From: Methanotrichaceae archaeon | GTDB taxonomy: Archaea; Halobacteriota; Methanosarcinia; Methanotrichales; Methanotrichaceae | NCBI GenBank assembly: GCA_963803145.1 | Contig: CAWDLW010000016.1 | Span: 32,001 to 96,000 of the forward strand | Reading direction: 5' to 3' | DNA length: 64,000 nt | Part shown: positions 1 through 29,396 of the stretch, piece after piece | Layout of the letters: each line of letters begins with the position of its first letter | How positions within the stretch are numbered: position 1 is the stretch's first letter | Made by a program: the position numbers and the translations under genes | The notes under the pieces: generated by a model | Databases searched by the model: none | The model's input: the letters and a program-made list of their open reading frames with translations, nothing else | What the model was told of the DNA's origin: nothing

Positions 1-813
1 GTTCATATAGACCTTGAAATCATCAGTCAAATTGTTATCGTCCTTCCATGCCCAGCAGTTCATTCTCACGAGGATATCCGAAGGTTTAGAGAGATTGAAC
101 TTTATATTTACCCCATGCACCTGGCCGCTATATCCTGGGCTTAGTATTCTCTCCGGGAACTTATTCAATGGCTCCCCAATGGTATAAGTAGGAGTACAAG
201 TTCCATAAGTCGAGCAGAAGGCCGAGCCTAATGTTGGCTCCTCCATACCGAGAACTGCCCTTCCCATGCTATTTTCAAGCGTCATCGTTGAGAAGCCGTA
301 GAAGATATTGGCATCACTCGGCAGATTCTCCATGCTTAGTAGAATTTTATTCATGCCATGCCTTGTGAACCTTGAAGGTATCTCGTAAAGGAAGCCCCTG
401 TCTTCGGATGACTCATTTCCGTTATAAGGGTTCCAATCGCCCACGAACTGATCGTTTACAAAGACCTCGATATCGTCCGTCCTGTTGGCCAGATCGATGT
501 AGTCAAGCCGTCCGCCCAGCTTTACAGTCAAATCCGATGGATCGGGAAGACTAAAAACTATATTCAGTCCATGAACAAAGCCATCGTAGTAAGGGCCGTA
601 TATGCCCTTGGGCACAGCATTATCTGTGCCTACTATGACCACAGGAGTGGATGTTCCATAATCTGCAATCTCCCTTGAGCCACAATGAGTTCCGTCCGCG
701 CCAATCATCATAGTAGTAGTATTATCGCTTGATTGTCCCTGGGCGGTTGCTAAGCCCGCGTTCGCACCAAGGACAAGCAGCATTAAAAGGGATATGAATA
801 TAATTGCTCGCAT
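1..813 (-). CDS. Secreted hypothetical protein with internal tandem domain repeat (runs off window edge)
   Basis: Manually translated from ATG at 813 with GGAGG upstream: MRAIIFISLLMLLVLGANAGLATAQG signal peptide; frame open to position 1. Not in ORF track because it lacks a stop in the window. Confidence 0.8.
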   Translation of the reverse strand, partial: MRAIIFISLLMLLVLGANAGLATAQGQSSDNTTTMMIGADGTHCGSREIADYGTSTPVVIVGTDNAVPKGIYGPYYDGFVHGLNIVFSLPDPSDLTVKLGGRLDYIDLANRTDDIEVFVNDQFVGDWNPYNGNESSEDRGFLYEIPSRFTRHGMNKILLSMENLPSDANIFYGFSTMTLENSMGRAVLGMEEPTLGSAFCSTYGTCTPTYTIGEPLNKFPERILSPGYSGQVHGVNIKFNLSKPSDILVRMNCWAWKDDNNLTDDFKVYMN

Positions 814-882
814 ATTTTCCTCCTGCTACCCTTATCTATTATGCTACGGTACCTAAAAGATTTCCTTCGAATAGTTTGCAAA

Positions 883-1290
883 CTAGGTCTCCAAGATTTC
901 TATGAGTCCTTTATCCGCATCGACTATCATATAAGTGCCATCTTTCAGATAGAGCAAATCTTCGGTGACTCCATCTACCAATGGAATTCCGCTAATGACT
1001 GCGCCTATTGCTACAATCGGCTCTGATTTAAGATTTATCATAGCCGCTGGAGCCTTGCCCCTCTTCTTGAGCTGGTAAATGATATATGATCCTACTGTCG
1101 AGCCCTTGCCCCCGGGAAAGATCAGTACCCTACCTGCGATGCACTTTCCATAAAGCTCATGCTCTGGATCTACAACTTCGCCTGTTTCAGGGCTCACATT
1201 TCCGAGGAAAGAGAGCGCATCCCTTGTCACCATAGCTTCGCCTGCTGCACAGCCTGATGATACTTTATGGCATCTAATCTTCAGACTCAT
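883..1290 (-). CDS. Aconitase X swivel subunit (DUF126); phosphomevalonate dehydratase small subunit
   Basis: GKGSTVGSY motif, LSFLGNV..TG..HEL.G; start at MSLKIR gives ATGA overlap with the upstream gene. Confidence 0.9.
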   Translation of the reverse strand: MSLKIRCHKVSSGCAAGEAMVTRDALSFLGNVSPETGEVVDPEHELYGKCIAGRVLIFPGGKGSTVGSYIIYQLKKRGKAPAAMINLKSEPIVAIGAVISGIPLVDGVTEDLLYLKDGTYMIVDADKGLIEILET

Positions 1291-2456
1291 CGCCCCCCTG
1301 CCGCTACGCGGATGCATTCCTCAGTGCTTCCAAAGCATGCCTTTATGCCGCATAGCCCCGGAATATAGGCCAGGGCTTTGCCAGAGTCCGTCATCATCTT
1401 ATCAAAGCGTTCGCTCGCGGGAGATACGACCATGCAGGTATCGCAGATTACCTTTGCGCCACTCGCTTCAATCCTGGCAACAAGATCGGGACATGCTTCT
1501 GCGATCTTTCTGGCAGTGCAGATCCAAAGCTCTTTTACAGCCCTCTTGCCGTCAAGCAGATCTGCAATACGTAAAAGCTCTGCTGGAGAGCAATGTGGGC
1601 ATCCCAAAGCCACGATCTCGACATCGTCAGGGGAATATTTTTCATAAACCTCATCGATATCCTTTCTCTCCACAACCATTTTATCAGCGCGCTTTGCCTG
1701 TGAAGGAGGAGATGGCGTAACATCCTCTACATAATAAAGGGCTACAGAGCCGCTTGCTGCCATCGCTGCACCAAGAGATTTCAGTTCATCAACGCTCGGC
1801 CGGCATTTCAGCCGAAAGATAGGTACACCATCTTTTACAGTCTTACCAACAAGAAAGCCGAGAGCGCCATAATCAGAGCCCTTCAGAACAATATCTGCAA
1901 CTACTAAGTGTGTGGGAACTCTGTTCTCATCCAGATGGTACCCGTAGAGTGGGGTCTTTCCAACGAGTGCAGCAGCCAGTGCAGACGGTCCGCCCTCACG
2001 GTTTGTTCTCGCGCCTATGACTGAGTTCGCATAAGATACTGCGGATGATTCGCTCCAAGCTAAATGATCCCCTTTGCGAACTGTACCAGGATAAATCCTG
2101 TAAGGTATGCAGGTGCAGTCATCTGCTATTCCAAGCTGCCTATATGCATCTATCGTGGCCTTTTGCTTTAACGCGAAATCCTCATCAATCCCCATATCTT
2201 GCCAGCGCAATAGATCCATGCCTGCGGGATTGAGAATGCTTGGGACAGAAACACGCCCGCGCAGATCAGATATCCACTCAAGGCCTGCATCTCCGATATT
2301 CTTGTAGGAGACTCCTGCAATCTGGACGCTTCTAATGGGTATCAGGCGACTCGCGTTATAGATATCTCCAAGAGCAACAAGGATTTCCATGGCCCTTCGC
2401 AGCGTTTCTCCCTGCTCTCCGCTTAGATAGCGTTCCTCCTCGGAGGAAAGATACAT
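1287..2456 (-). CDS. Aconitase X catalytic subunit (DUF521); phosphomevalonate dehydratase large subunit
   Basis: GVSYKNIGDAG, CTCIPY, WSESSA..ANSV.GARTNREGG, GCPH, DTCMVVSP, TDSGKA motifs; start set at MYLSSEE. Confidence 0.92.
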   Translation of the reverse strand: MYLSSEEERYLSGEQGETLRRAMEILVALGDIYNASRLIPIRSVQIAGVSYKNIGDAGLEWISDLRGRVSVPSILNPAGMDLLRWQDMGIDEDFALKQKATIDAYRQLGIADDCTCIPYRIYPGTVRKGDHLAWSESSAVSYANSVIGARTNREGGPSALAAALVGKTPLYGYHLDENRVPTHLVVADIVLKGSDYGALGFLVGKTVKDGVPIFRLKCRPSVDELKSLGAAMAASGSVALYYVEDVTPSPPSQAKRADKMVVERKDIDEVYEKYSPDDVEIVALGCPHCSPAELLRIADLLDGKRAVKELWICTARKIAEACPDLVARIEASGAKVICDTCMVVSPASERFDKMMTDSGKALAYIPGLCGIKACFGSTEECIRVAAGGR

Positions 2457-2491
2457 GACTAGTGCCTTCAAACGCGCTGGTATAAATCACT

Positions 2492-3415
2492 TCAGACCAA
2501 CATGTTCAGAGGATGCTTGGGGACTGGCCAGATATCTAAGTCGTGTACGGCCTCAGCAACCAGAATATCTGCCATAGCTGCCACAGGAAAGATGAAATCC
2601 GCATTCTCAATAGGCCCATAAAGCAGGAAATCGCCTGCTGCCAGAAGCTGCATTGCAGCTGCAGCAGCGTCGCAACATTTCTTCTCCATGATGCTTTTGC
2701 TTTTAAGCCACTGCCAGGCACTTACAGCATTATGTATGCCTGAACCTACCGGCAAGCCCAGCTTTGCTTTGGCAACGACTGAAAAACGCAAGGATGATCC
2801 GGCTCCGCTCCCCAGCGGCACGACTCCAGGATCTATCATCAAGTTCGTCATCCCCAGATCCCTTGCCAAAGACAATAGCCCCTGCTTCTTTACAGATCCT
2901 CCATTCTCAAGCGCATTCATACAGCCGTCGACGCTTGAGTCTGAAGGGTTGTAAGCCAGGATGATAGCCGAATCAATCTCGGATCTCAGCAGAGCATCGG
3001 CCTCATCATCAGGGGTTCCGAGGCTGATGCTGTTATAAACTGTCTTGTCTGCAAACCCGAGTTCCGAGACAAGGCTTGCCATATTTGTCCGAACAGCTGG
3101 ATCTGCAGAATCTATTATCAGAGGACCTGACCAGGTTTCATCGGCAAAGCTGAGGTATCTATCGAATGCCCTGGCTGTTCTCGCGTAGATATGAAGCATG
3201 GTGGGGATGCCCGTCTCCTCTGAGAGTTCGGACTGCCTATTAACAAGGATCTCAGCCTTCTCTCTATGGAAGATGCCATTATCTTCGTCTCCGACTATTT
3301 TATGGCCCTGGTAGAAGATGGTGCCGCAGAGAACTGTTGGATATTCCCCTGGTTGTCCTCCTAACCTTATACCCCCGATGTTTACAACCGATTGTTCGCG
3401 CTTAAATCTATACAA
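2492..3415 (-). CDS. mtrH: MtrH-like (MtxH-type) methyl-H4MPT:corrinoid methyltransferase
   Basis: GGQPGEYPTVL.GTIFY.GHKIV, YNSI, GSGIHNA.SAW.WLK, GDFLLYGPIENA typical of MtrH; not within an mtrE-H operon. Confidence 0.88.
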   Translation of the reverse strand: MYRFKREQSVVNIGGIRLGGQPGEYPTVLCGTIFYQGHKIVGDEDNGIFHREKAEILVNRQSELSEETGIPTMLHIYARTARAFDRYLSFADETWSGPLIIDSADPAVRTNMASLVSELGFADKTVYNSISLGTPDDEADALLRSEIDSAIILAYNPSDSSVDGCMNALENGGSVKKQGLLSLARDLGMTNLMIDPGVVPLGSGAGSSLRFSVVAKAKLGLPVGSGIHNAVSAWQWLKSKSIMEKKCCDAAAAAMQLLAAGDFLLYGPIENADFIFPVAAMADILVAEAVHDLDIWPVPKHPLNMLV

Positions 3416-3418
3416 TTT

Positions 3419-4027
3419 CTATTCCTCCAGGGCAATCCAGGCAGATGAATCCACTACTATACCGCAGCCAAAGAATAGATCGCCTTTTTCAGCCTTTGCA
3501 TCCGTCCCTATATCCATTCGCCTTGCCCTTTTCTTTAAAACCAAAAAAGGCTTCTCTGGATAAGGCACGGAGCGTAGGCTGTACTCTCCGATCAGCTCCT
3601 CGATCTTCTGCTTATCTACAAGTCCTATCTTATCTATTACAGTAACCTGATCCTGGAACCTCTTTATGGCATCTCGCGGAAGGTTCTGGATGAATGGTAT
3701 CGCTCCCTTGGAGCCTATGATTCTGCCAGCATCATCTATGCCGTTTCTATGCAGTGCGATAAGTGTATTTCCCGGCAGGTGACCTTTTGATTCGATGCCG
3801 CATATCAAGAGAAAACGTATATTGGAATTGGAGATCACATTTGCAACTATCTTTTCAATGCCGAGGTTCTCCGTTTTGCATGGGCCGATGAGGCTCGCGC
3901 CTTCTGCGCGAAGCGAGCTTGCTAGAGTGACGACAGCTACAGATCCCTCCGGACTGCCCACTACGTAGTCGCCTCGAATCGGCGGCCAAGGGTCATCATA
4001 TCCTTTCACAATATGATCTGAGGTCAT
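3419..4027 (-). CDS. mtrA: Soluble MtrA-like (MtxA-type) corrinoid protein lacking the membrane anchor
   Basis: WPP..GDY.VG, VAVVTLAS, G.CKTENLGIEKI.AN.ISN.NIRFL, ESKGHLPG (corrinoid His ligand), IIGSKGAIPFI; no hydrophobic C-terminal helix. Confidence 0.88.
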   Translation of the reverse strand: MTSDHIVKGYDDPWPPIRGDYVVGSPEGSVAVVTLASSLRAEGASLIGPCKTENLGIEKIVANVISNSNIRFLLICGIESKGHLPGNTLIALHRNGIDDAGRIIGSKGAIPFIQNLPRDAIKRFQDQVTVIDKIGLVDKQKIEELIGEYSLRSVPYPEKPFLVLKKRARRMDIGTDAKAEKGDLFFGCGIVVDSSAWIALEE

Positions 4028-4063
4028 AATCTCAAGTATCTCTGATCTTCACACGATAATAAA

Positions 4064-4094
4064 GAAAGCCCTTTTAAAGATTAAATTAGCTTTC
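4064..4094. promoter_or_regulatory. Candidate operator GAAAGC-N19-GCTTTC flanking a TTTAAA box in the mtrA'/HTH divergent region
   Basis: Inverted repeat at 4064-4069 and 4089-4094 enclosing CTTTTAAAG (4071-4079), about 45 bp upstream of the mtrA' start. Confidence 0.35.
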
Positions 4095-4207
4095 GTCTAA
4101 TGCATGGAGAAATAAAGATGACTGTAATATGAAAAATAGAAATATGAGAATGAGAAAATAGGGTGTGCTCATGAGACAATGTTGTTATGGGAATCACGGT
4201 GGCGTTG

Positions 4208-4594
4208 ATGACTTCATACAAGGATAGGATCCTGGATGTTATCCGGTCGTCCGATGTAGGGCTTACCACAGTGGATGTAGCCAAGCGATCGGACGTAAGC
4301 AAAACAACTGTAATAAAATACCTCTCTGTGCTCAGATCTGAAGACCAGGTCGAGTTCGTAGAGGTAGGTCCCTCAAAGCTCTGGAGGATCAAAAGCCACA
4401 TTGAGAAATCGCCAGATGAGCAAAAGCATGGAGCGACAAGGCTAGAGATTGAGCCGCTTCCAGTGGTAGATATTGATCTATGTGACGGCGATGAGAAGAC
4501 GGTCTATTTCTCGTTCAGAGTAAATCCTGAACAAATCTGTTCGCTAATGAAGCGCGCGAAGAAATGCGTATGCAAAGTTGCGGATTCTTATTGA
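4208..4594 (+). CDS. Winged-HTH DNA-binding protein with unknown Cys-containing C-terminal domain
   Basis: GLTTVDVAKRSDVSKTTVIKYLSVL...VEFVEVGPSKLWR wHTH pattern; alternative start at 4187. Confidence 0.75.
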   Translation: MTSYKDRILDVIRSSDVGLTTVDVAKRSDVSKTTVIKYLSVLRSEDQVEFVEVGPSKLWRIKSHIEKSPDEQKHGATRLEIEPLPVVDIDLCDGDEKTVYFSFRVNPEQICSLMKRAKKCVCKVADSY

Positions 4595-4620
4595 TGTATA
4601 TGTAATTATGAGGCCTGTAG

Positions 4621-5985
4621 ATGCATATACCAAATGAAATCAGAGACTTCTTTAATATTGAAAGAGGTCAGACGCTTCTTATAAAGGGGCTGCCTGGAAC
4701 AGGCAAGACCACTCTAGCTTTGGAGATAATGAATGCCCTCTGTGAAAAAAACAATGGATTATATATCTCAACGAGAGTGGACCCTGAACGCCTCTACGCG
4801 ACGCACCCTTGGGTAAAGGGTGTGCTGCCGCCTAAGAATGTGATCAATGCAACCCAGGCAAAGCTGCTTGAAAGCCTAAAAAGCCTAAGCAAGGATGTTT
4901 CCGATTACTACGCTGTTCTCGATTTCTTTAAAGTATTCTTTGATGAGGCAGAGGAGATGGATAACCCTCTGATAGCAATAGATAGTTGGGATGCAGTTCT
5001 AAATTACACTTCTCAGTTCATTGGCAATTCACAGCATAGCTTCGAGCAGAACATCTGCGAGTTCGCGCGTGATCTGGATACGCACCTTATATTTGTGAGC
5101 GAGTTTGCGAATGTGATGCCTTTGGACTATATCGTAGATGGCGTGGCAACTATGGAGCAGTTCAAGATCCAAGGAGGATCTGGCAAGGACGGCCCGAGCG
5201 ACATGAGGACGCGATATGCCCGCCAGATAAGGCTCGATAAGCTCAGGGGTGTAGAGATCAAGCAGAAAACGTACACCTCAACCCTCCATGGAGGCAGGTT
5301 CAGATGCTTCAAGCCCTATGGAGAACATCTAGATGCCAGGATTGCAAGCGATGTAACCAGGATTCCGGATCCAGGCGAGGATAGAATATCAACTGGAATA
5401 CCGGATCTGGATAAAGCCATTGGTGGTCTCAGGTACGGCTCATGCAACGTGATGGAGATCGATTACGGCGTAGGCAAAAGATACTACCAGATGCTGACCG
5501 CTCTCGCATCGAATGCCTTGAAAAACGGCCGGGGCGTGTTCATACTTCCAAGCATTGGCTACCAGCTAAGCTCTCGTGATATCTTCGTCCCGACAAACAT
5601 AGTAGTTGCGCAACCTAAGGATATGGGCCCCGAGGAATGGTCCAAGGATATGCTTAAAAAATGGGATGAGCTGCGAGAAAGGACCGGCAGGCCGATACTG
5701 AATATAATAGGCCTTGATACAATGGAGTTTGCCTTCGGCTATAAAGAGGTTCTTAATATGGCAAACCTCATGATTCAGAAATGGAAGGAGACCAACGATA
5801 TAAACGTATTAGTAGTAAAGACCGGCCAGGAGAGCCTCAACATGGCCATACATACCGCGGACACATACTTCCTTGTGAACGAGCTGAACGGCGGGCTGTG
5901 TCTTTATGGTGTCATCCCTAGAACTGAACCGTATAACATGCTTCTGGAAGAGAGGAATAGGATAAGCCTGACACCTATCGTCTAG
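4621..5985 (+). CDS. GvpD-like / KaiC-superfamily tandem RecA-fold ATPase
   Basis: Walker A GLPGTGKT, YISTRV, IDSW, KLRG; second domain begins RISTGIPDLD with a degenerate Walker A. Confidence 0.8.
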   Translation: MHIPNEIRDFFNIERGQTLLIKGLPGTGKTTLALEIMNALCEKNNGLYISTRVDPERLYATHPWVKGVLPPKNVINATQAKLLESLKSLSKDVSDYYAVLDFFKVFFDEAEEMDNPLIAIDSWDAVLNYTSQFIGNSQHSFEQNICEFARDLDTHLIFVSEFANVMPLDYIVDGVATMEQFKIQGGSGKDGPSDMRTRYARQIRLDKLRGVEIKQKTYTSTLHGGRFRCFKPYGEHLDARIASDVTRIPDPGEDRISTGIPDLDKAIGGLRYGSCNVMEIDYGVGKRYYQMLTALASNALKNGRGVFILPSIGYQLSSRDIFVPTNIVVAQPKDMGPEEWSKDMLKKWDELRERTGRPILNIIGLDTMEFAFGYKEVLNMANLMIQKWKETNDINVLVVKTGQESLNMAIHTADTYFLVNELNGGLCLYGVIPRTEPYNMLLEERNRISLTPIV

Positions 5986-6332
5986 CTTTATTTTTTAGGG
6001 ATTTTTCGTCTGCATTTTGTTTCTCAAGCCATGCTGTACACTGTAATCCAGGCATTCTGCAATCAGGCTCAGCAACTCATTATCGGGTATCTGCTCACAT
6101 AGACTGTTCGATCTCTAGGAGATGCAAAGCAGCCTTTCACGATGGTAGATTATCTCAAAAGGCTGTGGTATCCTTGGAGCAAAAAGACTATGGCTGATTG
6201 GGTGGCCGGCCATATGCTGTATATTCACCTTATGCATATGGTACGGCCATTTGCGCCCACAGCGGAAACCGCATTATGAGTGCGCTAGGGATAGACAGCG
6301 GATATCAGAGATTGAGATCTGTATATCCAGAT

Positions 6333-6842
6333 TCAAGCTGTGCTGTGGTAACCTTTGGCCATCCTTGATGCAGCCTCTTTACGCAGCATTTGCGCAAACT
6401 CCTCCTCCTCAGAGAAGATCAGAGTATGGGTTGGGCAGGCATCGACGCAGGCAGGTTGTTTTCTATCGCCGCAGCGATCACATTTCACAGCCACACGTCC
6501 CTCTTTTTGCCTGCTTATCACTCCATAGGGACATATCATAGCGCACATCCAGCAGCCGATGCACCTCTCAGCATCTCTATCCACAGCGCCAGTTGATAGA
6601 TCCTGTCTCATTGCCCCTGTACGGCAGACCGCCACACAGGGTGCGTCCTCACAGTGCCTGCAGACCAGGGGCATCTTCTGGCCGTCTGCCTGCTCGACAT
6701 ATAACCTACGCACAGGGAGGGGCTTCTCAGAGATGGCCCCATAGAGGCTCTTGTTTTTGGAGTGCTCTATTGCACACGCCATCTCGCATGATCTACAGCC
6801 CATGCATCTGTCCAGGCGAACAAATATTTCCTTCATCTTCAC
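6333..6842 (-). CDS. cooF: CooF-type 4Fe-4S polyferredoxin (electron transfer subunit of CODH)
   Basis: Four Cys clusters (CMGCRSCEMAC, CRHCEDAPCVAVC, CIGCWMCAMICP, KCDRC...PACVDACP); overlaps cooS stop. Confidence 0.88.
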   Translation of the reverse strand: MKMKEIFVRLDRCMGCRSCEMACAIEHSKNKSLYGAISEKPLPVRRLYVEQADGQKMPLVCRHCEDAPCVAVCRTGAMRQDLSTGAVDRDAERCIGCWMCAMICPYGVISRQKEGRVAVKCDRCGDRKQPACVDACPTHTLIFSEEEEFAQMLRKEAASRMAKGYHSTA

Positions 6843-8686
6843 AGCCCCAGCTTGGTGCGCTGGCTCTCTATATGATCAATCATGAGCTTCGATGCCTTAA
6901 TGGGATCGGGCTCGACTGCGAAAGAGCCTCCAACGACATCCTTGGCGCCTTTTGTAAGCAAGGCAGCAACATTCTGGCTTCCGAGAACAGGAGGAACCGT
7001 TCCCAGAACTGTGTAGACTCCAGAGGCAACGACATAGGCCCCAATTGCAACTGCCTTCTCGCTCATCCATTCAGGCGCAGCTCCCGCAGCAGGCAGATCG
7101 CTTATATCAACACCAAGTGCGTTTGCTATAGCTGCAGCAGCGACGAGAATCCTGCTGATATCCACGCAAGATCCCATATGTAGAACTGGCGGAACACCTA
7201 GAGCCTTGCAGACGCCTTTTAGGCCGTCCCCGGCAAGGTCTGCAGCCTCCGGCAAAAGGAGGCCAGCTTTTGCGCATGCCAGGGCGTTGCATCCTGTCGT
7301 TACTACTAATATATTGTTCTTTATCAGCTCCTTCACAAGATTTACGTGGCCCGAGTCCTGCTTAATCTTTGGATTATTACATCCAACGACTGCGCCCAAG
7401 CCCCGTATGGCACCGCTCTTTATTGCGCCGAGCAATGGATCGAGCGAGCCGCCAAGCGCATTTACAATTGCCTCAACGCTGAAGCCGACCATTGCCTTGG
7501 ACTTGATATCAGGTATGTGAACTTTGGCAGGATCACGATTTTTATAATTCATGACTGCTGTTCGGACGATTGCTATGGAGGTCTCATAGGCATTTTCCGG
7601 ATGAACCTCCATGTGGGTCGCTCCAGGGAACTTGGCCTTTGGCGATGTGGATATGAACTTCGTGTGGAAGCATCCGGCGAGTGTGCCAAGCGCCGGCATC
7701 ACGCACTGCACATCCACAACCATTGCATCAACAGCGCCTGTGGTGATAGCGAGCTCCTGCTGAAGGAAGTTGCCTGCTGCTGGAACGCCGTATCGCATTA
7801 GAATTTCGTTGCCCGTGCAGCACATTCCGGCAACGTTTATGCCCTTTGCACCCTGACCAATGGCCAGATCAATCATTCCTGGATCGGATGCTGCGGCCAC
7901 GATCATCTCTGATAAAAGTGGCTCGTGTCCGTGGACAATGATGTTCACCTCATCCTTCTCGAGGACGCCCAAGTTCGCTTCAGTGATCGTCGGAACTGGT
8001 GTGCCGAAGATGACGTCCTGGAGTTCAGTTGCTATCATCGATCCACCCCAGCCGTCAGCCAGGCTCGCTCTAAGGCCCTGAAGTATCAGGTTGACATAGT
8101 CGCTGTCAACGCCCATAGTCGTTCTGTGCATTATCTCAACAATTTCGCGATCTATTCCACGAGGGACTATGCCGAGGCTCTTCCAGAGGTTCTGGCGCTT
8201 TAGCGGAGCACGACTGATGAATTGAATTGGGCCCTCCTGACTTCCGAACTCTGCAAGGATGGCATCTGCCAAAGCTATCTGATCGGATACGCCGTACTCC
8301 TTCATCAGACGCTCCATCTTTGCCTGATCGGTTATGCTGTAGCCAGGCGCCTTGCCCTCAGCCATAAGCTTGAAGGTAATGCTCACATCCCTCGCATGGT
8401 CTGAATGAGCAGATGCGCCTGCTGCTATGGCTCTGAGCAGATTCCGGGCGACGATTGTATCGGCCGTTGCCCCACAAGCCCCCTTAGTTGCGCCTTCGCC
8501 AAATGGATCGATGCGGCATGGCCCCATGTTACAATTTCGACAGCACAGGCCAAGCTCTCCAAAGCCGCAATGGGGCTCTTGCTTTTCAAAGCGATCCCAT
8601 ACTGTCTCTATACCTGCTCGCTGCGCCACAGTAAGCATCTCCTGGCTTGCAGGATCTATTGACATGTCACGAATATCTTTGGCCAT
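6839..8686 (-). CDS. cooS: Anaerobic Ni-Fe carbon monoxide dehydrogenase catalytic subunit (CooS type)
   Basis: CGFG..GLCCRNCNMGPCR..CG (D/B clusters); C-cluster ligands HGH, CCTGNE, DVQC, GCNN, GCNA, GSCVD; SEKA. Confidence 0.95.
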   Translation of the reverse strand: MAKDIRDMSIDPASQEMLTVAQRAGIETVWDRFEKQEPHCGFGELGLCCRNCNMGPCRIDPFGEGATKGACGATADTIVARNLLRAIAAGASAHSDHARDVSITFKLMAEGKAPGYSITDQAKMERLMKEYGVSDQIALADAILAEFGSQEGPIQFISRAPLKRQNLWKSLGIVPRGIDREIVEIMHRTTMGVDSDYVNLILQGLRASLADGWGGSMIATELQDVIFGTPVPTITEANLGVLEKDEVNIIVHGHEPLLSEMIVAAASDPGMIDLAIGQGAKGINVAGMCCTGNEILMRYGVPAAGNFLQQELAITTGAVDAMVVDVQCVMPALGTLAGCFHTKFISTSPKAKFPGATHMEVHPENAYETSIAIVRTAVMNYKNRDPAKVHIPDIKSKAMVGFSVEAIVNALGGSLDPLLGAIKSGAIRGLGAVVGCNNPKIKQDSGHVNLVKELIKNNILVVTTGCNALACAKAGLLLPEAADLAGDGLKGVCKALGVPPVLHMGSCVDISRILVAAAAIANALGVDISDLPAAGAAPEWMSEKAVAIGAYVVASGVYTVLGTVPPVLGSQNVAALLTKGAKDVVGGSFAVEPDPIKASKLMIDHIESQRTKLGL

Positions 8687-9546
8687 ATCTATCTCCCTCA
8701 ATGATAATAATAAAACGAGGTCTCTCCGATCCGATACTACTTAGCTTTTGGCCTTTATTTTAAGCAGCCTTCTTAGAGCTAAGAATGATTTAATTGCTGA
8801 GTGGAAGCCTTATTCGTTTGTGTTTTCGCGGGCGACACTCTGCGACTAAACAGTAGTAATGTTGCTAATGTTACCATAAATATGCCAGTAAGCGAGGCAC
8901 CCTGCCTCTACTTTTCCGCTCCTTGCCTTATCGGGCTTACGCCTAATGCGGAGGAGGTAACGGCACTGCCTTTTTTTGGACAGAATGGTGAGTTCAATTC
9001 TCTAACTGACCTTTCGGGGAAATGCTGCTATAATTCGATAGAGTTGATGAAGGTAGTAAGCCCTGAGATATCTTAGGGCAGATATGTCATGAGAAATATA
9101 ACTCTGATCTTTGGCGAGACTGCCTTTAAGTTCTCCCAGCGTAATATCGATGCAGGTCTAATAGCCTACCGCCAATGATTCTAACCAGATTTCCAATCCA
9201 GCATTATATACTCACATTGGAGGGGATAGACGCACCCTCTCGCAGTGTGATCTTTGAGCATGATGTTGAGGATTCGCTCGGAAACATGGCAAGGAAGTTT
9301 TGGAATGAAAGCATCAACAATGTACGTTAAATATGGTTCTAAATTATTTATTTAATGTACTATTGTTATGTTTGCTATCATAAAAATCATTAAATTATGT
9401 TTCGATGATTTATCATGGGCTATATAATTCAAAAAATTACTTGGCTTAATTTACCGATAGACTTAAAGTTATCGACATTAAACGAAGTCCTATCGCCAAA
9501 GAACGATAATAGTATCGTCGGAGGGCGATAATGGAGGTTTGATCTA

Positions 9547-10830
9547 TTGCAACAAGAGACTTATAATAGGCTATTAGCATCACTTATTATCCTGGGCATG
9601 ATTATAACACCTGCGCTGGGATTTTCAGTGAGCTATTCTTCAGGAGATGGCAGTGGTGCAGTCTCCTCCTCGTCCAGCTACAAACTGGATGATTCCAGTT
9701 CATTACAGCAGCAGGCCGTTCTGTCGGGAAGTGAGCTTTCACAGACATCTCAGGCAAGCGGTACTGGCGATAATTCTATAGCAAACTCCGTTGGAGGCAA
9801 TGGATATTCTTTGAGCAATGAAGTCGATAGCTCTGGATCTATGGGAGTATCCACTTCAGCTGTGGCCACAGGAAGCGGAGCAGGCATAAGCCAGAACGCT
9901 GCCCTATCTGGAAAATCGGGCAGTGTCAGCTTAATAGCTTCATCCAATAAGAACGAAATGGGTTTAGCCAGCAGCTTCTCTGGAGACAGCAATATGAACA
10001 CAGATCTGAGCGCAGTCGCTGCAGACAGAGCTGCAATGACAGGAACTGCATCATCTGCAGGCGTGCCTGTTCTTGAGGGCGGCGAGCTTGAGCGAGTTGC
10101 TTCAGGCGATATCGGCATGTCCGTTGATGGATTATATCTTCAACCTTCAGGCAACCTCGGAGAGTTTAGCCTGAATACAGTCAATATTGAGAAAACGCCT
10201 GCAAGCGGTACACCATCCTATCTCACTCTCGCTAATGATGGCGGCAGCTCGGGCTCATATCGCTTAATGGGCTGGAGATGGAATACACAAACCCCCAATA
10301 TCCAGTGGAATGTCAAGAGCAATGCAGTGCCTACAAACGTAGGTGCTTACAATGTAGCATTAGCCGCATCAGCTGCGGGACAGACATGGAACGCTGCAAC
10401 CGGCAAGACGCTCTTCAACCCCTCAGTCGTGTATACTTCAAGTGTGAACACAGATACTGGCGACGGCAAAAATGTAATAGCCTGGAAGAATTTGGCAGAT
10501 GCCCCAGGTGCCTTGGCTTATTCAAGGACATGGTATAACTACAATAAGGTGGGCGGATATTACTCTGCAGTTGAATCAGATATAAGCCTCAGCACAAGCT
10601 ACGCCTGGTCGACATCGCTCGCAAATGGCAGGCCCTACTACTATGGCGACCCCATTGATATCCAAAGCGTTCTCACGCATGAAATGGGCCATACATTAGG
10701 TCTGGGAGACCTGTACGGCAATACACCATATTCGGGCGACCACGCAGAGATAATGAACTCCTACTCAGGAGTCAAGCGCAACACACTCGGAAATGGAGAT
10801 ATAACGGGAATCAGGAAACTGTACGATTAA
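9547..10830 (+). CDS. Secreted metzincin (matrixin-like) Zn metalloprotease with Ser/Gly-rich N-terminal region
   Basis: Signal peptide; DIQSVLTHEMGHTLGLGD zinc motif, Met-turn EIMNS; GGAGG before TTG start. Confidence 0.85.
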   Translation: MQQETYNRLLASLIILGMIITPALGFSVSYSSGDGSGAVSSSSSYKLDDSSSLQQQAVLSGSELSQTSQASGTGDNSIANSVGGNGYSLSNEVDSSGSMGVSTSAVATGSGAGISQNAALSGKSGSVSLIASSNKNEMGLASSFSGDSNMNTDLSAVAADRAAMTGTASSAGVPVLEGGELERVASGDIGMSVDGLYLQPSGNLGEFSLNTVNIEKTPASGTPSYLTLANDGGSSGSYRLMGWRWNTQTPNIQWNVKSNAVPTNVGAYNVALAASAAGQTWNAATGKTLFNPSVVYTSSVNTDTGDGKNVIAWKNLADAPGALAYSRTWYNYNKVGGYYSAVESDISLSTSYAWSTSLANGRPYYYGDPIDIQSVLTHEMGHTLGLGDLYGNTPYSGDHAEIMNSYSGVKRNTLGNGDITGIRKLYD

Positions 10831-13377: not shown

Positions 13378-14276
13378 CCTTTCTTTTATTCAGAAATATT
13401 TATTGGACTTATTAAATTACATTTTTCCGCAAGCGATCAGGAATTAAGCGAAGAGTATAGAACTTTAGAGGTGTATCTAAGCCAGGAGTATCCCGTCATC
13501 AAGACCCAGAGAATATACTTTTCGATCATCTTGCTCTTTCCTGATGATAAGTTATGGTGATGTGTGCAGCTTAGCCAAGCGATGAAAGCACACCCCATTT
13601 CAGATAGATGAAATTACGTTTAAAAACAAATTATATCGTATATAAAATATTTAAATTAAATGGGCTGAAAATAACGAATTGGTGCAGTATCATATTATAT
13701 TAATGATGGCATCCCAGTTCACGCAAGCGGTCTACGCTTTTGAAAATATTTATTAGATAAGTATATATACAATATATCGGAAGCATACTACCTTCTCAAT
13801 CCGCGGATCATAGAAGGCTCTCGTAGCCATCCTCCTTTGGCACCATATGATCTGCACGACGGATATCAAGGTGAGCAAATATGACATTCAAGGTTCCCGC
13901 AGAGATAGCAAAGGCATCCATAGCCTCTGGATGCGCAAAATGCACAATGAACTGGCAAAAGCTATTGATCTTGGGCTTTCTTGCAGGGGCATACATCGCC
14001 TTTGGAGCATTGTTGAGCGAAATTGTGGCTGGCGGCCTATCTAATGGAACGATCACAGCTGCAAACGGAGATATCTGGAAGATAGCTCTCCCCACAGGCC
14101 TTGTTAAGTTCGCGACTGGCGCGGTCTTCCCGGTAGGACTTATGCTTGTAGTGATCGGAGGCGCAGAGCTGTTCACTGGAAACTGCCTCTTTGCACCAAT
14201 AAGCGTTCTAAATAGGGAAGCATCGTTTAAGGGATTGGTGACGAACTGGGCGATAGTTTATATTGCCAATATTATA

Positions 14277-15414
14277 GAGGATTCCTATAAACCTACCCCC
14301 TGCTTTAGCATCGAAAGTGTTAAATACAGCAAATAGTATTTATTGTTATGGATTCTTTTACTACTTGGGTATTGAAAGGTCTAAATGCAAAGCAAGAGGA
14401 GTCTAAATTAGCTCAAGTATCTGGATTGATCAATTGGGTTCCCTTTCGTCCTCTTCTGGAAGGGATGTATACTAATAAGACCGAGAAGGGCGGAAGGCCC
14501 AACTGTGATGTTATTCTAATGTTCAGGATCCTGATTCTCCAGCAGTGGTATGGCCTGAGCGATCTGGCTGTTGAACGGCAAATGGCTGATCGCATATCAT
14601 TTATGGCATTTCTTGGTTTTCCTGATCAGTTCCCTGATTCCAGAACTATATGGTCATTCAAAGAACGAATGGCGGAGACAGGAACAGATAGGCTTGTTTG
14701 GGCTGAACTTCAAAGACAGTTGGATGCAAAAGGATTGAAGATCAGACGCGGAATTGTTCAGGATGCTACCTTTATAGAAGCAGATCCAGGATCATCGGAG
14801 TCAAAGAAACCACGTGGCGATGAGGCTAAGACACGTCGCAGCAAGGATGGCACATGGGCTAAGAAAGGCAATGAAACTCACTTCGGATATAAGTTACATC
14901 AAATAACTGATATCGATTACAGCCTAATACGTGATATAGAGACCTCGACTGCATCACTGCATGACAGTCAGGTTGATCTCTCTATCCCTGGCGTGCCAGT
15001 TTTCAGAGATAGAGGATATTTCGGTGTGAAGGCCAAAGGTATTGATTTTACAATGAAGCGCAGGACTACTGATAAACCTCTTTCTGATCTTGATAAAGAA
15101 CGCAATCAGTTGATCAGTATCCTCAGATCGCCTGGCGAAAGGCCCCATGCTGTAATCAAGAGGGTTTTCGAGGCTGGAAGAGTGCTTGTTACATCAGTCA
15201 GAAGAGTGCATGTGAAAATGATAGTTACCGCTTTCGCTTTTAACTTGTATCAGCTTTGTACTCTTAAAAAGGCAAATGTCATTTAGGGATAGCGGATGCT
15301 ATCGAGAATTAACTGAAAAAAAACAGGTTAGACCAAGAATAGCGAACATCGTAAGGCAAATCTAGAGTCGATTTAAAAAAACCGCCCTTAGGATACAAGT
15401 AAATAGGAATCCTC
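14277..15414 (+). mobile_element. IS5-family insertion sequence, 1138 bp
   Basis: Terminal IRs GAGGATTCCTATAAAC / GTAAATAGGAATCCTC; TATA target duplication at 14273-14276 and 15415-15418. Confidence 0.95.
14348..15286 (+). CDS. IS5-family DDE transposase
   Basis: GGRP, LQQWYGLSD..E..DRISF..FLG, PD.RTIW.F, VQDAT, FGYKLH, DRGY, R...ERP motifs. Confidence 0.93.
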   Translation: MDSFTTWVLKGLNAKQEESKLAQVSGLINWVPFRPLLEGMYTNKTEKGGRPNCDVILMFRILILQQWYGLSDLAVERQMADRISFMAFLGFPDQFPDSRTIWSFKERMAETGTDRLVWAELQRQLDAKGLKIRRGIVQDATFIEADPGSSESKKPRGDEAKTRRSKDGTWAKKGNETHFGYKLHQITDIDYSLIRDIETSTASLHDSQVDLSIPGVPVFRDRGYFGVKAKGIDFTMKRRTTDKPLSDLDKERNQLISILRSPGERPHAVIKRVFEAGRVLVTSVRRVHVKMIVTAFAFNLYQLCTLKKANVI

Positions 15415-15964
15415 TATAGGCTCTATATTTGTAGCCTATTTCCTTGCATACAAATGCGGCTTTTTCAACGCTATGCCATGGGCAGGATGGGCTGCAACAG
15501 TTGCGAATACGAAATGCGGTCTCGACTTCACTACGGCTTTTTTGCGAGGCATCGGCTGTAACTGGCTTGTTTGCCTTTCAATATGGCTGGCGATAAGCGC
15601 AGAAGATATCATCAGCAAGATACTGGCCATCTGGTTCCCAATAATGGCCTTTGTGACCATTGGCTTTGAGCATAGCGTAGCTAATATGTTCTTCATCCCA
15701 TTGGGGCTATTCGTGGCCAATGATCCTGCCATAGCAACCAATCTTGCTATATCTAAGGTTGCCACGGCGAATCTTATTGGAGCGACCGGTTGGTATAATT
15801 TCATTGTTACTAACCTGATACCCGTCACCCTTGGAAACATTGTAGGAGCAGTGCTCTTTGTGGCGATATTATACTGGTATGTGTATGCACATGGATCGCT
15901 CTGCACCCCTACGCAGACAAAGATAAAGGCGCCAAAACAATAAAGATAAAAGAGCTAAAGATAA

Positions 15965-28652: not shown

Positions 28653-29396
28653 TCAAGGATAGGGCGATAGAGACGAAACTGACATGCCTTCATCGGATAT
28701 GTCCAGAACCCTTATGGTGTTGGCTATTTTAGATCCCCTCATCTTCATGATGTAAACTGATCTGATAAGGACATTTCCTATTCGATCCCTGTTGAGCATC
28801 GTTGCCGAGTCCGCACCATACTCAAGGAATTGGTTCATGCCAAATGCAGTGCCTATGGTTATGACGGATGTGACTCCGTTTGCCCTTAGGCTGCCAAATA
28901 GATCGTCTGCCAAAGACCTGATCTTGAAGGGCTCCTCTACAGCCATAAAGAAGGCCATTAGATCATCGATGAAGAGCCTGGTAGGCTTTACCTCCTGAAG
29001 CTTTCTCTCAACAAGCTTTCGAAAGTTGGTCAAGAACTCTATAGGGTCGCCTTCAATGCTCTTTTGGAGCCGAAGGATAGGATCTGTTACATCAACTATG
29101 CTCAGCTTGCCCTCCTTTTCAAGCTGAGAAAAATCCCATCCGAAAGAGGACATCATCTCCCTTTTAAGGAAATCGGCGCTCTCGGAAGGTGTGATTATGA
29201 TTCCCTTTTCGTCATTCTTTATGCCGTAATATATGAATTGGCTTGCAAAGACGGTCTTTCCCGTTCCAGATGGTCCCGTTATTGTGTTCACAGTTCCCTT
29301 AAGGAACCCTCCATTGACCATATCATCAAACCCGGGAATGCCTGACTTTACTCTCGGAAATTCGGTAGGTTTCAACGCCACGAACACTGCTCCCAC
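28653..29396 (-). CDS. Single-domain KaiC/RAD55-like ATPase
   Basis: SGIPGFD...GG, Walker A GPSGTGKT, RLFIDD, KMRGS. Confidence 0.88.
   Translation of the reverse strand: MGAVFVALKPTEFPRVKSGIPGFDDMVNGGFLKGTVNTITGPSGTGKTVFASQFIYYGIKNDEKGIIITPSESADFLKREMMSSFGWDFSQLEKEGKLSIVDVTDPILRLQKSIEGDPIEFLTNFRKLVERKLQEVKPTRLFIDDLMAFFMAVEEPFKIRSLADDLFGSLRANGVTSVITIGTAFGMNQFLEYGADSATMLNRDRIGNVLIRSVYIMKMRGSKIANTIRVLDISDEGMSVSSLSPYP

Follow-up and report, generated by a model that had tools for sequence, protein, structure and literature searches.

The mtxXAH operon of Methanosarcina goes back to Harms & Thauer 1997, which is cited in PMC12978539, PMC4632066 and PMC3087415, and its function is stated to be unknown in the available portions of PMC3087415 and PMC12978539. 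According to the accessible text of PMC12978539, mtxX clusters with mtxAH only in some genera of the Methanosarcinales, and lies beside mmp2 in the Methanotrichales. The present analysis concerns an mtxA-mtxH gene pair, and the divergent operon that it faces, in a 64,000-nucleotide stretch of DNA from a Methanotrichaceae archaeon, termed the window below (C16:32001-96000 of a 4.13-Mb, 51-contig genome with a contamination estimate of 6.8%). The facing operon encodes a predicted winged-helix-turn-helix (wHTH) protein, called the HTH protein here, and a two-domain ATPase of KaiC/GvpD type. Archaeal KaiC-like ATPases were reportedly proposed as signalling hubs by Makarova and colleagues in 2017. 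For the GvpD/GvpE pair of haloarchaeal gas-vesicle clusters, the part of PMC4390858 that is available describes a GvpE-responsive repeat at the divergent gvpA and gvpD promoters.

The best explanation of this locus, with a rough probability of 0.6, is that it consists of two separate units. One is a pair of orthologues of mtxA and mtxH, and the other is a family-specific, single-copy HTH-ATPase operon, likely an ATP-dependent switch, which has a positional tie to mtxA. The mtxAH genes have been annotated since 1997 without a function. They are universal among the Methanotrichaceae genomes searched, and this family of acetoclastic methanogens is of global importance. Genomes, genera, families, contigs and loci are denoted by G, g, f, C and L numbers.

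Identity of the MtxA and MtxH Pair

An earlier note on the window, made from its letters, had described mtrA-like and mtrH-like genes 3 bp apart, an MtrA-type product that keeps its corrinoid histidine and lacks the membrane anchor, no mtrB-G and no mtxX in the window, and, divergent across about 180 bp, a wHTH gene and a gene for a two-domain GvpD-like ATPase. All of these descriptions are upheld. Gene calls and Pfam MtrA and MtrH matches agree on the first two genes, with mtxA upstream and the gap at 3416-3418. In MtxA, His83 (motif ESKGH) aligns with His85 (VKGH) of the genome's own MtrA, and this conserved histidine of the MtrA family is the cobalt ligand according to the literature. The protein ends before the hydrophobic C-terminal helix that is present in all seven canonical MtrA sequences, and its maximum Kyte-Doolittle hydropathy in a 19-residue window is 1.51, whereas the genome's own MtrA reaches 2.41 (residue 222). 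Residues 4-148 match the solved MtrA structure 5LAA (E 9e-50). Of the columns that are invariant in 7 canonical MtrA sequences, MtxA keeps 47/66, and MtxH keeps 65/94 of those invariant in 8 canonical MtrH sequences.

Because a complete canonical mtrEDCBAFGH operon lies at C16:14193-19166, on the same contig and 16 kb before the window, the mtxA/mtxH pair is a soluble paralogue set and not pieces of a scattered Mtr complex. The MtrA and MtrH families have exactly two matches each in the genome, one each in this operon and one each in the window. No second copies of MtrB, C, D, F or G were found, as tblastn with the genome's own proteins matches the operon only, outside the window. The sole genome match to TIGR03270 (Mmp4/MtxX) is on contig C23, and this unlinked mtxX agrees with the finding for Methanotrichales in the accessible text of PMC12978539. 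A second, stand-alone mtrE, 98% identical to the operon copy, lies outside the window at C17:189240-190160; either a real duplication or strain DNA that was co-binned could explain it, in view of the contamination estimate.

The earlier note had set the pair apart from mtxXAH of Methanosarcina, and this distinction was not borne out. Four Methanosarcinaceae genomes in a PF04208 search each have an operon MtrA plus an MtrA paralogue of 189-208 amino acids (aa). A TIGR03270 (MtxX) gene precedes the short paralogue in four genera (226-258 bits), and an MtrH paralogue follows it in 3/4 loci, the fourth locus having ended early; therefore, these loci are mtxXAH operons. The MtxA of the window is 42-50% identical over its full length to the MtxA of Methanosarcinaceae, compared to 40% for the genome's own MtrA, and the corresponding values for MtxH are 50-54% and 39%. 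In addition, a C-terminal tail (GD...D..aW) is common to MtxA of the window and of Methanosarcinaceae, and canonical MtrA is without it. Maximum-likelihood trees, small in sampling (22 rows for MtrA/MtxA, 20 for MtrH/MtxH), join the MtxA-type proteins of both families in one clade (84/90), apart from the canonical MtrA clade (97/93), and place all MtxH-type rows outside the canonical MtrH clade (support 99/96), so that both members of the window pair fall outside the canonical clades. Judged by identity, shared tail and trees, the window genes are orthologues of Methanosarcinaceae mtxA and mtxH. They correspond to the genes that Wang et al. 2015 class as group II mtrA and subgroup II mtrH, as far as the available text of PMC4632066 describes these groups.

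Family models place the pair less sharply. NF010654 is the best NCBIfam model for the MtxA of the window at 233.3 bits, below the curated cut-off of 279; all Methanotrichaceae copies score 206-250 bits and a Methanosarcinaceae MtxA 353.5 bits. TIGR01114 cannot separate MtxH from MtrH, because MtxH of Methanosarcinaceae passes this model too. A set of Methanomicrobiales-type loci (L009-L013, L015, L017), taken at one point for MtrA'-MtrA'-MtrH' modules, was rejected, as these are canonical mtr operons with a duplicated mtrA (Wang 2015).

Stability of the Divergent Junction

Conservation of the locus was followed in 81 genomes of Methanotrichaceae, which represent 16 genera. All 16 genera and 79/81 genomes have the ATPase, with 61-96% identity when full length, and an MtxA-type gene is listed in 75 of the 81, with 52-84% identity. 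Among the 75 genomes with both genes listed, mtxA and the ATPase gene are divergent and within 3 kb of each other in 62, which represent 14/16 genera. The gap between them is 570-1030 bp in 60 genomes, with room just for the HTH gene, and 2.2-2.6 kb in the other 2, which carry insertions. The one insertion that was read is an IS605 OrfB/TnpB-type gene between mtxA and the HTH gene (L039:8576-9808; G044, genus g2). The HTH gene is directly upstream of the ATPase gene in 11/11 orthologous loci read, including genera that have mtxA elsewhere.

Two neighbouring junctions served as controls. The gene for the large subunit of AcnX is within 3 kb of mtxA in 37/75 genomes, and at 3.3-5.7 kb in 4 more (11/16 genera), while cooS is within 3 kb of the ATPase gene in 35/69 genomes and within 8 kb in 40/69 (9/16 genera). 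With 62/75 compared to 37/75 and 40/69, the junction between mtxA and the HTH gene is therefore the best kept of the three. This family-wide, unusually stable divergent pairing of mtxA with a wHTH and KaiC/GvpD-like ATPase operon is new. No published description of an HTH/ATPase neighbour of mtxAH was found in the mtx, MtrAH or KaiC/GvpD literature on Methanothrix, bioRxiv supplements lying outside this coverage, and the accessible parts of PMC12621877, PMC10470525 and PMC3349665 hold nothing relevant on mtx genes or such a neighbour. The conserved four-gene block that the earlier note had envisaged stands within Methanotrichaceae, by the 62/75 genomes and 14/16 genera above, and does not extend to Methanosarcinaceae, which have ATPase homologues without HTH or mtx genes beside them.

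It is plausible, though short of probable, that the HTH/ATPase pair is a dedicated regulator or methyl-pool sensor of mtxAH, switching a Na+-pump-independent methyl route from a shared promoter region. The divergent arrangement, with its gap of 570-1030 bp in 60 genomes and insertions in two more, is consistent with this idea, as is the rank of the mtxA-ATPase junction as the best kept of the block. Moreover, the locus of genus g8 is broken between mtxA and mtxH, with mtxA staying beside the HTH-ATPase genes and mtxH 232 kb away. After parting from mtxA, this mtxH is still directly upstream of the acnX genes (L057:6259-8778, G022).

The control junctions also bear on a different view, in which the HTH/ATPase pair belongs with cooS-cooF or is a general regulator, and its place beside mtxA is inherited gene order. 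In genus g13, the HTH-ATPase genes are within 4 kb of cooF-cooS and mtxAH-acnX has been relocated; cooS is within 8 kb of the ATPase gene in the 40 genomes counted above; and the pair occurs throughout the family, with higher conservation than MtxA. However, the ATPase and cooF genes are convergent and thus have no promoter in common, fewer genomes keep the cooS junction than the mtxA one, and genera g6 and g8 have no cooS nearby. This view is unlikely on balance, and the reading as two units tied by position at mtxA is preferred to it.

The HTH Protein and the ATPase

The HTH gene is real, and the spacing of about 180 bp holds with a start at ATG 4208, not at 4187 where the open reading frame (ORF) is listed. 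In 11 orthologues, homology begins at Met8 of the listed ORF (M-x-S-Y-K...), and a GGTGG Shine-Dalgarno motif precedes ATG 4208; for these reasons 4208 is taken as the true start, which gives the intergenic region of 4028-4207 its 180 bp. All Pfam HTH matches of the 128-aa protein are below cut-off. An AlphaFold2 (AF2) model predicts an H-H-H-E-E winged helix at residues 1-61, with a predicted local distance difference test (pLDDT) above 90. Residues 65-86 form a disordered linker in this model, and the C-terminal helix after it is weakly predicted. The C-terminal segment is conserved in sequence, with S102 and F103 invariant. By its model, the protein is a winged-helix DNA-binding protein.

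The ATPase gene starts 26 bp past the HTH gene. Its product matches the Pfam families GvpD_P-loop (PF07088; 79.9 bits, cut-off 24, 173/189 profile positions) and KaiC (PF06745; 39 bits, cut-off 26.6), and GvpD_bR2 (PF20440) remains under its cut-off (20.2 compared to 27.9 bits). Across 16 aligned sequences (A2), the residues kept are Walker A G23-T30, E35, D121/S122, E161 and KLRG 207-210. In the same alignment, the second domain begins with a KaiC-like STGIxDLD...GG motif and has a degenerate P-loop, which reads GVGKR without the leading Gly or the Ser/Thr, and which in more distant homologues is also without the Lys. A model of the protein (mean pLDDT 75) best matches full-length two-domain KaiC in Foldseek (E 3.5e-21, 490-510 aligned columns, template-modelling (TM) score 0.33), and a phmmer search of PDB sequences returned a single KaiC chain (E 0.0029). 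Three runs in which the ATPase (A2) was folded together with the HTH protein (A1) scored 0.00, 0.70 and 0.00. No gas-vesicle (Gvp) families are among the window proteins scanned, and the rest of the genome was not searched for gvp genes.

These features would give the operon a wHTH protein in which a disordered linker leads to a short conserved tail, and an ATPase with an active-looking N-terminal domain and a pseudo-ATPase C-terminal domain. By analogy, the two most likely form an ATP-dependent transcription switch, in which the ATPase would work on the HTH protein as GvpD does on GvpE.

A second KaiC-family ATPase, with a single domain (PF06745, 163.6 bits), is encoded at 28653-29396 of the window, in a glycogen synthesis/degradation cluster with glycogen synthase, GT4, GH57 and debranching enzyme genes.

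A Conserved Element in the Intergenic Region

Comparison across loci reveals an element of 20-23 nt, AATATGAAAAATAGAAATATGAG in the window, that stands out from otherwise diverged intergenic sequence. It is kept in g1, g2 (9/9 loci, 1-3 changes), g3, g15 and g16, and partly in g4 and g10. In most loci it is located 65-105 nt upstream of the HTH start, with an AATAR-type box about 10 nt after it. In g5, g8 and g12 (L036, L079, L080, L082, L083, L086, L088), a motif ATTAATTKGGRAAG is found 60-85 nt upstream of the HTH gene, replacing the TATGAAAAATTGAAATATGA element. No second copy exists in the genome at <=3 mismatches; other sites of the 23-nt element number 7 at 5 mismatches and 82 at 6, which are taken as chance, and a looser ATATGA-N6-9-ATATGA pattern has 13 genome sites with no regularity. 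In 5/5 relatives the element also occurs once per genome, at the orthologous site, compared to 2 chance matches for a reversed-pattern control. An Rfam scan of window positions 1-10000 gave nothing relevant.

The element adjoins the HTH promoter and is about 100 nt away from the start of mtxA; it moves with the HTH gene. In g13, the region upstream of the HTH gene still has degenerate copies of ATATGA. From this sequence context, the element is best read as a promoter-proximal control site of the HTH-ATPase operon, with the mtxA promoter about 45 nt further on. The HTH-ATPase pair would probably control at least its own promoter through this conserved single-copy site just upstream.

Weighing the Positional Tie

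Several observations weigh against a tie between the two units. The mtxA and HTH-ATPase genes are apart in genus g6 (7/7 genomes; by 1.3 Mb in a one-contig genome), and mtxAH and HTH-ATPase are apart in genus g13 (2/2), with both units persisting in each genus. The junction counts overstate the number of independent events, because the compared genomes are kin, and cases scored as lying on a different contig may be assembly breaks, to which longer junctions are more exposed. In the insertion-bearing locus of G044, the element is on the HTH side of the IS605/TnpB gene, about 150 nt upstream of the HTH start. In g13 (L033, L035), the relocated mtxA has no copy of the element and instead has a perfect palindrome, TGTGTCATGACACA, before a TATA-like box, which suggests a different regulator there. 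The assignment of the 128-aa protein as DNA-binding has sub-threshold Pfam matches and a model as its basis. Finally, the ATPase and MtxA part company outside the family, as described below. A genome thought to have the HTH-ATPase genes and no mtxA (G032) was rejected as such a case, since mtxA is present there, divided by a gap in the assembly.

In 251 genomes searched at class level, the ATPase homologues outside Methanotrichaceae were only 27-40% identical and occurred in g24 (30/30), one g38 genome and family f8 (3/3), with none in 35 g21 genomes. Methanosarcina acetivorans has mtxXAH and no homologue of this ATPase. Nine of these outside loci were read and gave no tblastn match to the HTH protein, MtxA or MtxH; Pfam matches on 5/9 identify the neighbours as AlaRS, response regulators, a histidine kinase and unrelated genes. 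In g24, the ATPase is present in 30/30 genomes and MtxA-type genes in 0/14, and in g21, MtxA is present in 12/13 and the ATPase in 0/35. The ATPase-MtxA association is therefore confined to one family.

The notion of a dedicated regulator of mtxAH draws further on the GvpD/GvpE precedent, with its repeat element at divergent promoters as given in the available part of PMC4390858. Against it, g6 and g13 separate the genes yet keep both units, the element near the HTH promoter travels with the HTH gene, and ATPase and MtxA do not co-occur outside the family. The results hold no pointer to methyl-pool sensing. On position, the evidence that speaks for it, regulation of mtxAH by the pair can be tentatively regarded as plausible. 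A more specific version is rather doubtful: by analogy with GvpE/GvpD, the wHTH protein and ATPase might act through the single-copy TATGAAAAATTGAAATATGA to set both divergent promoters, so that production of MtxA(H), a soluble and pump-independent methyl carrier, would be limited to a particular energy or carbon state, e.g. CO or low sodium-motive force.

If the pair does control mtxA, it would be the first regulatory handle on the function of genes that have had no assigned function since 1997, and the inducing condition would reveal when a methanogen needs a cytoplasmic methyl-tetrahydromethanopterin (CH3-H4MPT)/corrinoid route in addition to the energy-conserving Mtr. Otherwise, the pair would remain a regulator that is highly conserved throughout the family. 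The accepted pathway is unchanged by these findings.

Distribution and Possible Function of MtxAH

A phylum-wide NF010654 scan of 401 genomes, at a threshold that admitted some canonical MtrA at 178-195 bits, found full-length MtxA-type genes in 12/12 sampled Methanotrichaceae. It also found MtxA-type genes in the Methanosarcinaceae genera g18, g20, g21, g22, g23 and g25, and in four further families (f5, f13, f20, f22); none were found by it in g24 (0/14), g26 and g27. Adjacency of mtxA and mtxH recurs in the other lineages (8 loci). In one g23 genome they are fused in frame: after an mtxX-sized gene, L064:6131-7492 (G121) encodes MtxA-MtxH in a called ORF of 453 aa, and the fused open frames are 524 and 495 aa in two g23 genomes. 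As far as gene structure can tell, this natural fusion is evidence that both proteins act together.

The neighbours of mtxAH differ among these lineages. A conserved 339-355-aa protein with weak DHH/DHHA1-like matches is encoded after mtxH in L058, L060, L062 and L063 (families f5, f20, f22). An RFC-like AAA ATPase gene is close upstream of mtxA in L058, L060, L061 and L065, and is divergent and directly adjacent in three of these.

From homology, MtxH, a pterin-binding methyltransferase of the MtrH type, would most likely transfer methyl between CH3-H4MPT and a Co(I) cobamide that MtxA binds through His83. This transfer would be cytoplasmic and uncoupled from Na+ pumping, because MtxA is without a membrane helix and without MtrB-G partners. 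In the transcriptome supplement of PMC11087674, the rows for methyltransferase subunits A and H are Methanospirillum genes only.

One destination for the methyl group could be methionine. In this scheme, MtxAH would be the methyl-donor module of the core (folate-independent) methionine synthase, with the methyl passing from CH3-H4MPT by way of MtxH and CH3-Co-MtxA to MesC/MesA and methionine. The available text of Price et al. 2021 (PMC7857596) predicts corrinoid-protein donors for core synthases and places MesC in Methanosarcinales and Methanotrichales. A Thermoplasmata metagenome-assembled genome (MAG) has MtrA-like, MtrH-like and Meth_synt_2 genes head to tail on one contig (L016:6856-9290), the last scoring 113.6 bits on PF01717 and 239 bits on NF002119, under the cut-off of 258. 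By its gene content, this trio could be a soluble module that donates methyl groups for methionine synthesis in a lineage outside Methanosarcinia. In the genome that holds the window, however, PF01717 has no match and the MesC-type gene (NF004712, 406 bits) is unlinked, on contig C2. MesC is also present in 5/5 genomes without an MtxA-type gene (g24, g26, g27), and MtxA therefore cannot be its obligatory donor. In addition, the gene after mtxH in four other lineages is the DHH-like one and not a synthase. The methionine scheme is accordingly given little credence.

The ATPase has also been considered as a partner of MtxA in another sense, namely as its ATP-dependent activator, whether chaperone or reductive activase helper, with CooS/CooF giving low-potential electrons. 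The argument for this is position: the genes for the corrinoid protein, the ATPase, the CO dehydrogenase and the ferredoxin of the latter are within 6 kb. The ATPase, however, has no Fe-S motif and is co-operonic with a predicted DNA-binding protein, and the three units part in several genera. Known corrinoid activases belong to another fold family. An activating role is thus highly improbable, and two units joined by position, with the ATPase as part of a transcription switch, remain the favoured account.

Arrangement of the Locus

The features of the locus are collected in Table 1. Linkage of mtxH to acnX is also seen in most other genera. Elsewhere in the window (13881-15943), an inserted DDE transposase gene (14348-15286) interrupts a gene for a formate/nitrite transporter and separates its N-terminal half from its C-terminal half.

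Table 1. Genes and sites around the mtxA/HTH junction, in window coordinates.
Feature	Position	Strand	Remarks
AcnX small subunit gene	883-1317	-	Pfam PF01989/PF04412 matches for AcnX pair
AcnX large subunit gene	1287-2471	-	PF01989/PF04412 matches; 20 bp downstream of mtxH
mtxH (MtrH paralogue; CH3-H4MPT:corrinoid methyltransferase type)	2492..3415	-	307 aa, TTG start; PF02007 336 bits
mtxA (soluble MtrA paralogue; corrinoid protein)	3419..4027	-	202 aa; PF04208 189.5 bits, profile positions 6-151/173
Divergent intergenic (promoter) region	4028..4207	.	180 bp; read directly, compared across 32 loci
Conserved element AATATGAAAAATAGAAATATGAG	4126..4148	+	60-82 nt upstream of HTH start codon
Predicted winged-helix DNA-binding protein gene	4208..4594	+	128 aa; ORF listed from 4187, likely true start 4208
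Two-domain KaiC/GvpD-type ATPase gene	4621..5985	+	454 aa; GvpD_P-loop + KaiC Pfam matches
cooF-like ferredoxin gene	6333-6842	-	Fer4 families; convergent with ATPase gene
cooS CO dehydrogenase gene	6839-8701	-	TIGR01702 725.7 bits; convergent with ATPase gene

Comparison with Known Systems

Compared to the Na+-pumping MtrA-H complex, the pair has the same PF04208 and PF02007 domains, the same histidine ligand motif and the invariant columns counted above. It differs in its identity of 39-40% to the genome's own copies, in its separate clade, and in having no anchor and no MtrB-G partners.

Like other archaeal KaiC-like ATPases, the ATPase of the window has two RecA-like domains and matches PF06745 above cut-off, but its second P-loop is degenerate. 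The likeness to GvpD/GvpE of haloarchaeal gas-vesicle clusters is twofold. One point is the match of the ATPase to the GvpD P-loop family; the other is that its gene shares an operon with that of a transcription-factor-like protein, at a divergent promoter region bearing a short element with a repeat. In contrast to GvpE, which is leucine-zipper-like, the partner is a predicted winged-helix protein, the gene order is reversed with the HTH gene first, and the GvpD_bR2 match is under cut-off. The resemblance of the element to the GvpE-responsive repeat of the gvpA/gvpD promoters, as the available part of PMC4390858 presents it, is one of analogy and not of homology.

The closest system is the mtxXAH operon of Methanosarcina. 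Three differences from it are seen: mtxX is on contig C23 and not in the window operon, a divergent HTH and ATPase neighbour was not found beside the Methanosarcinaceae mtx operons read, and the MtxA of the window, at 233 bits, is under the NF010654 cut-off. In both, MtxA is short, keeps the corrinoid histidine, has no transmembrane helix and ends in the shared tail, and mtxH is located directly downstream.

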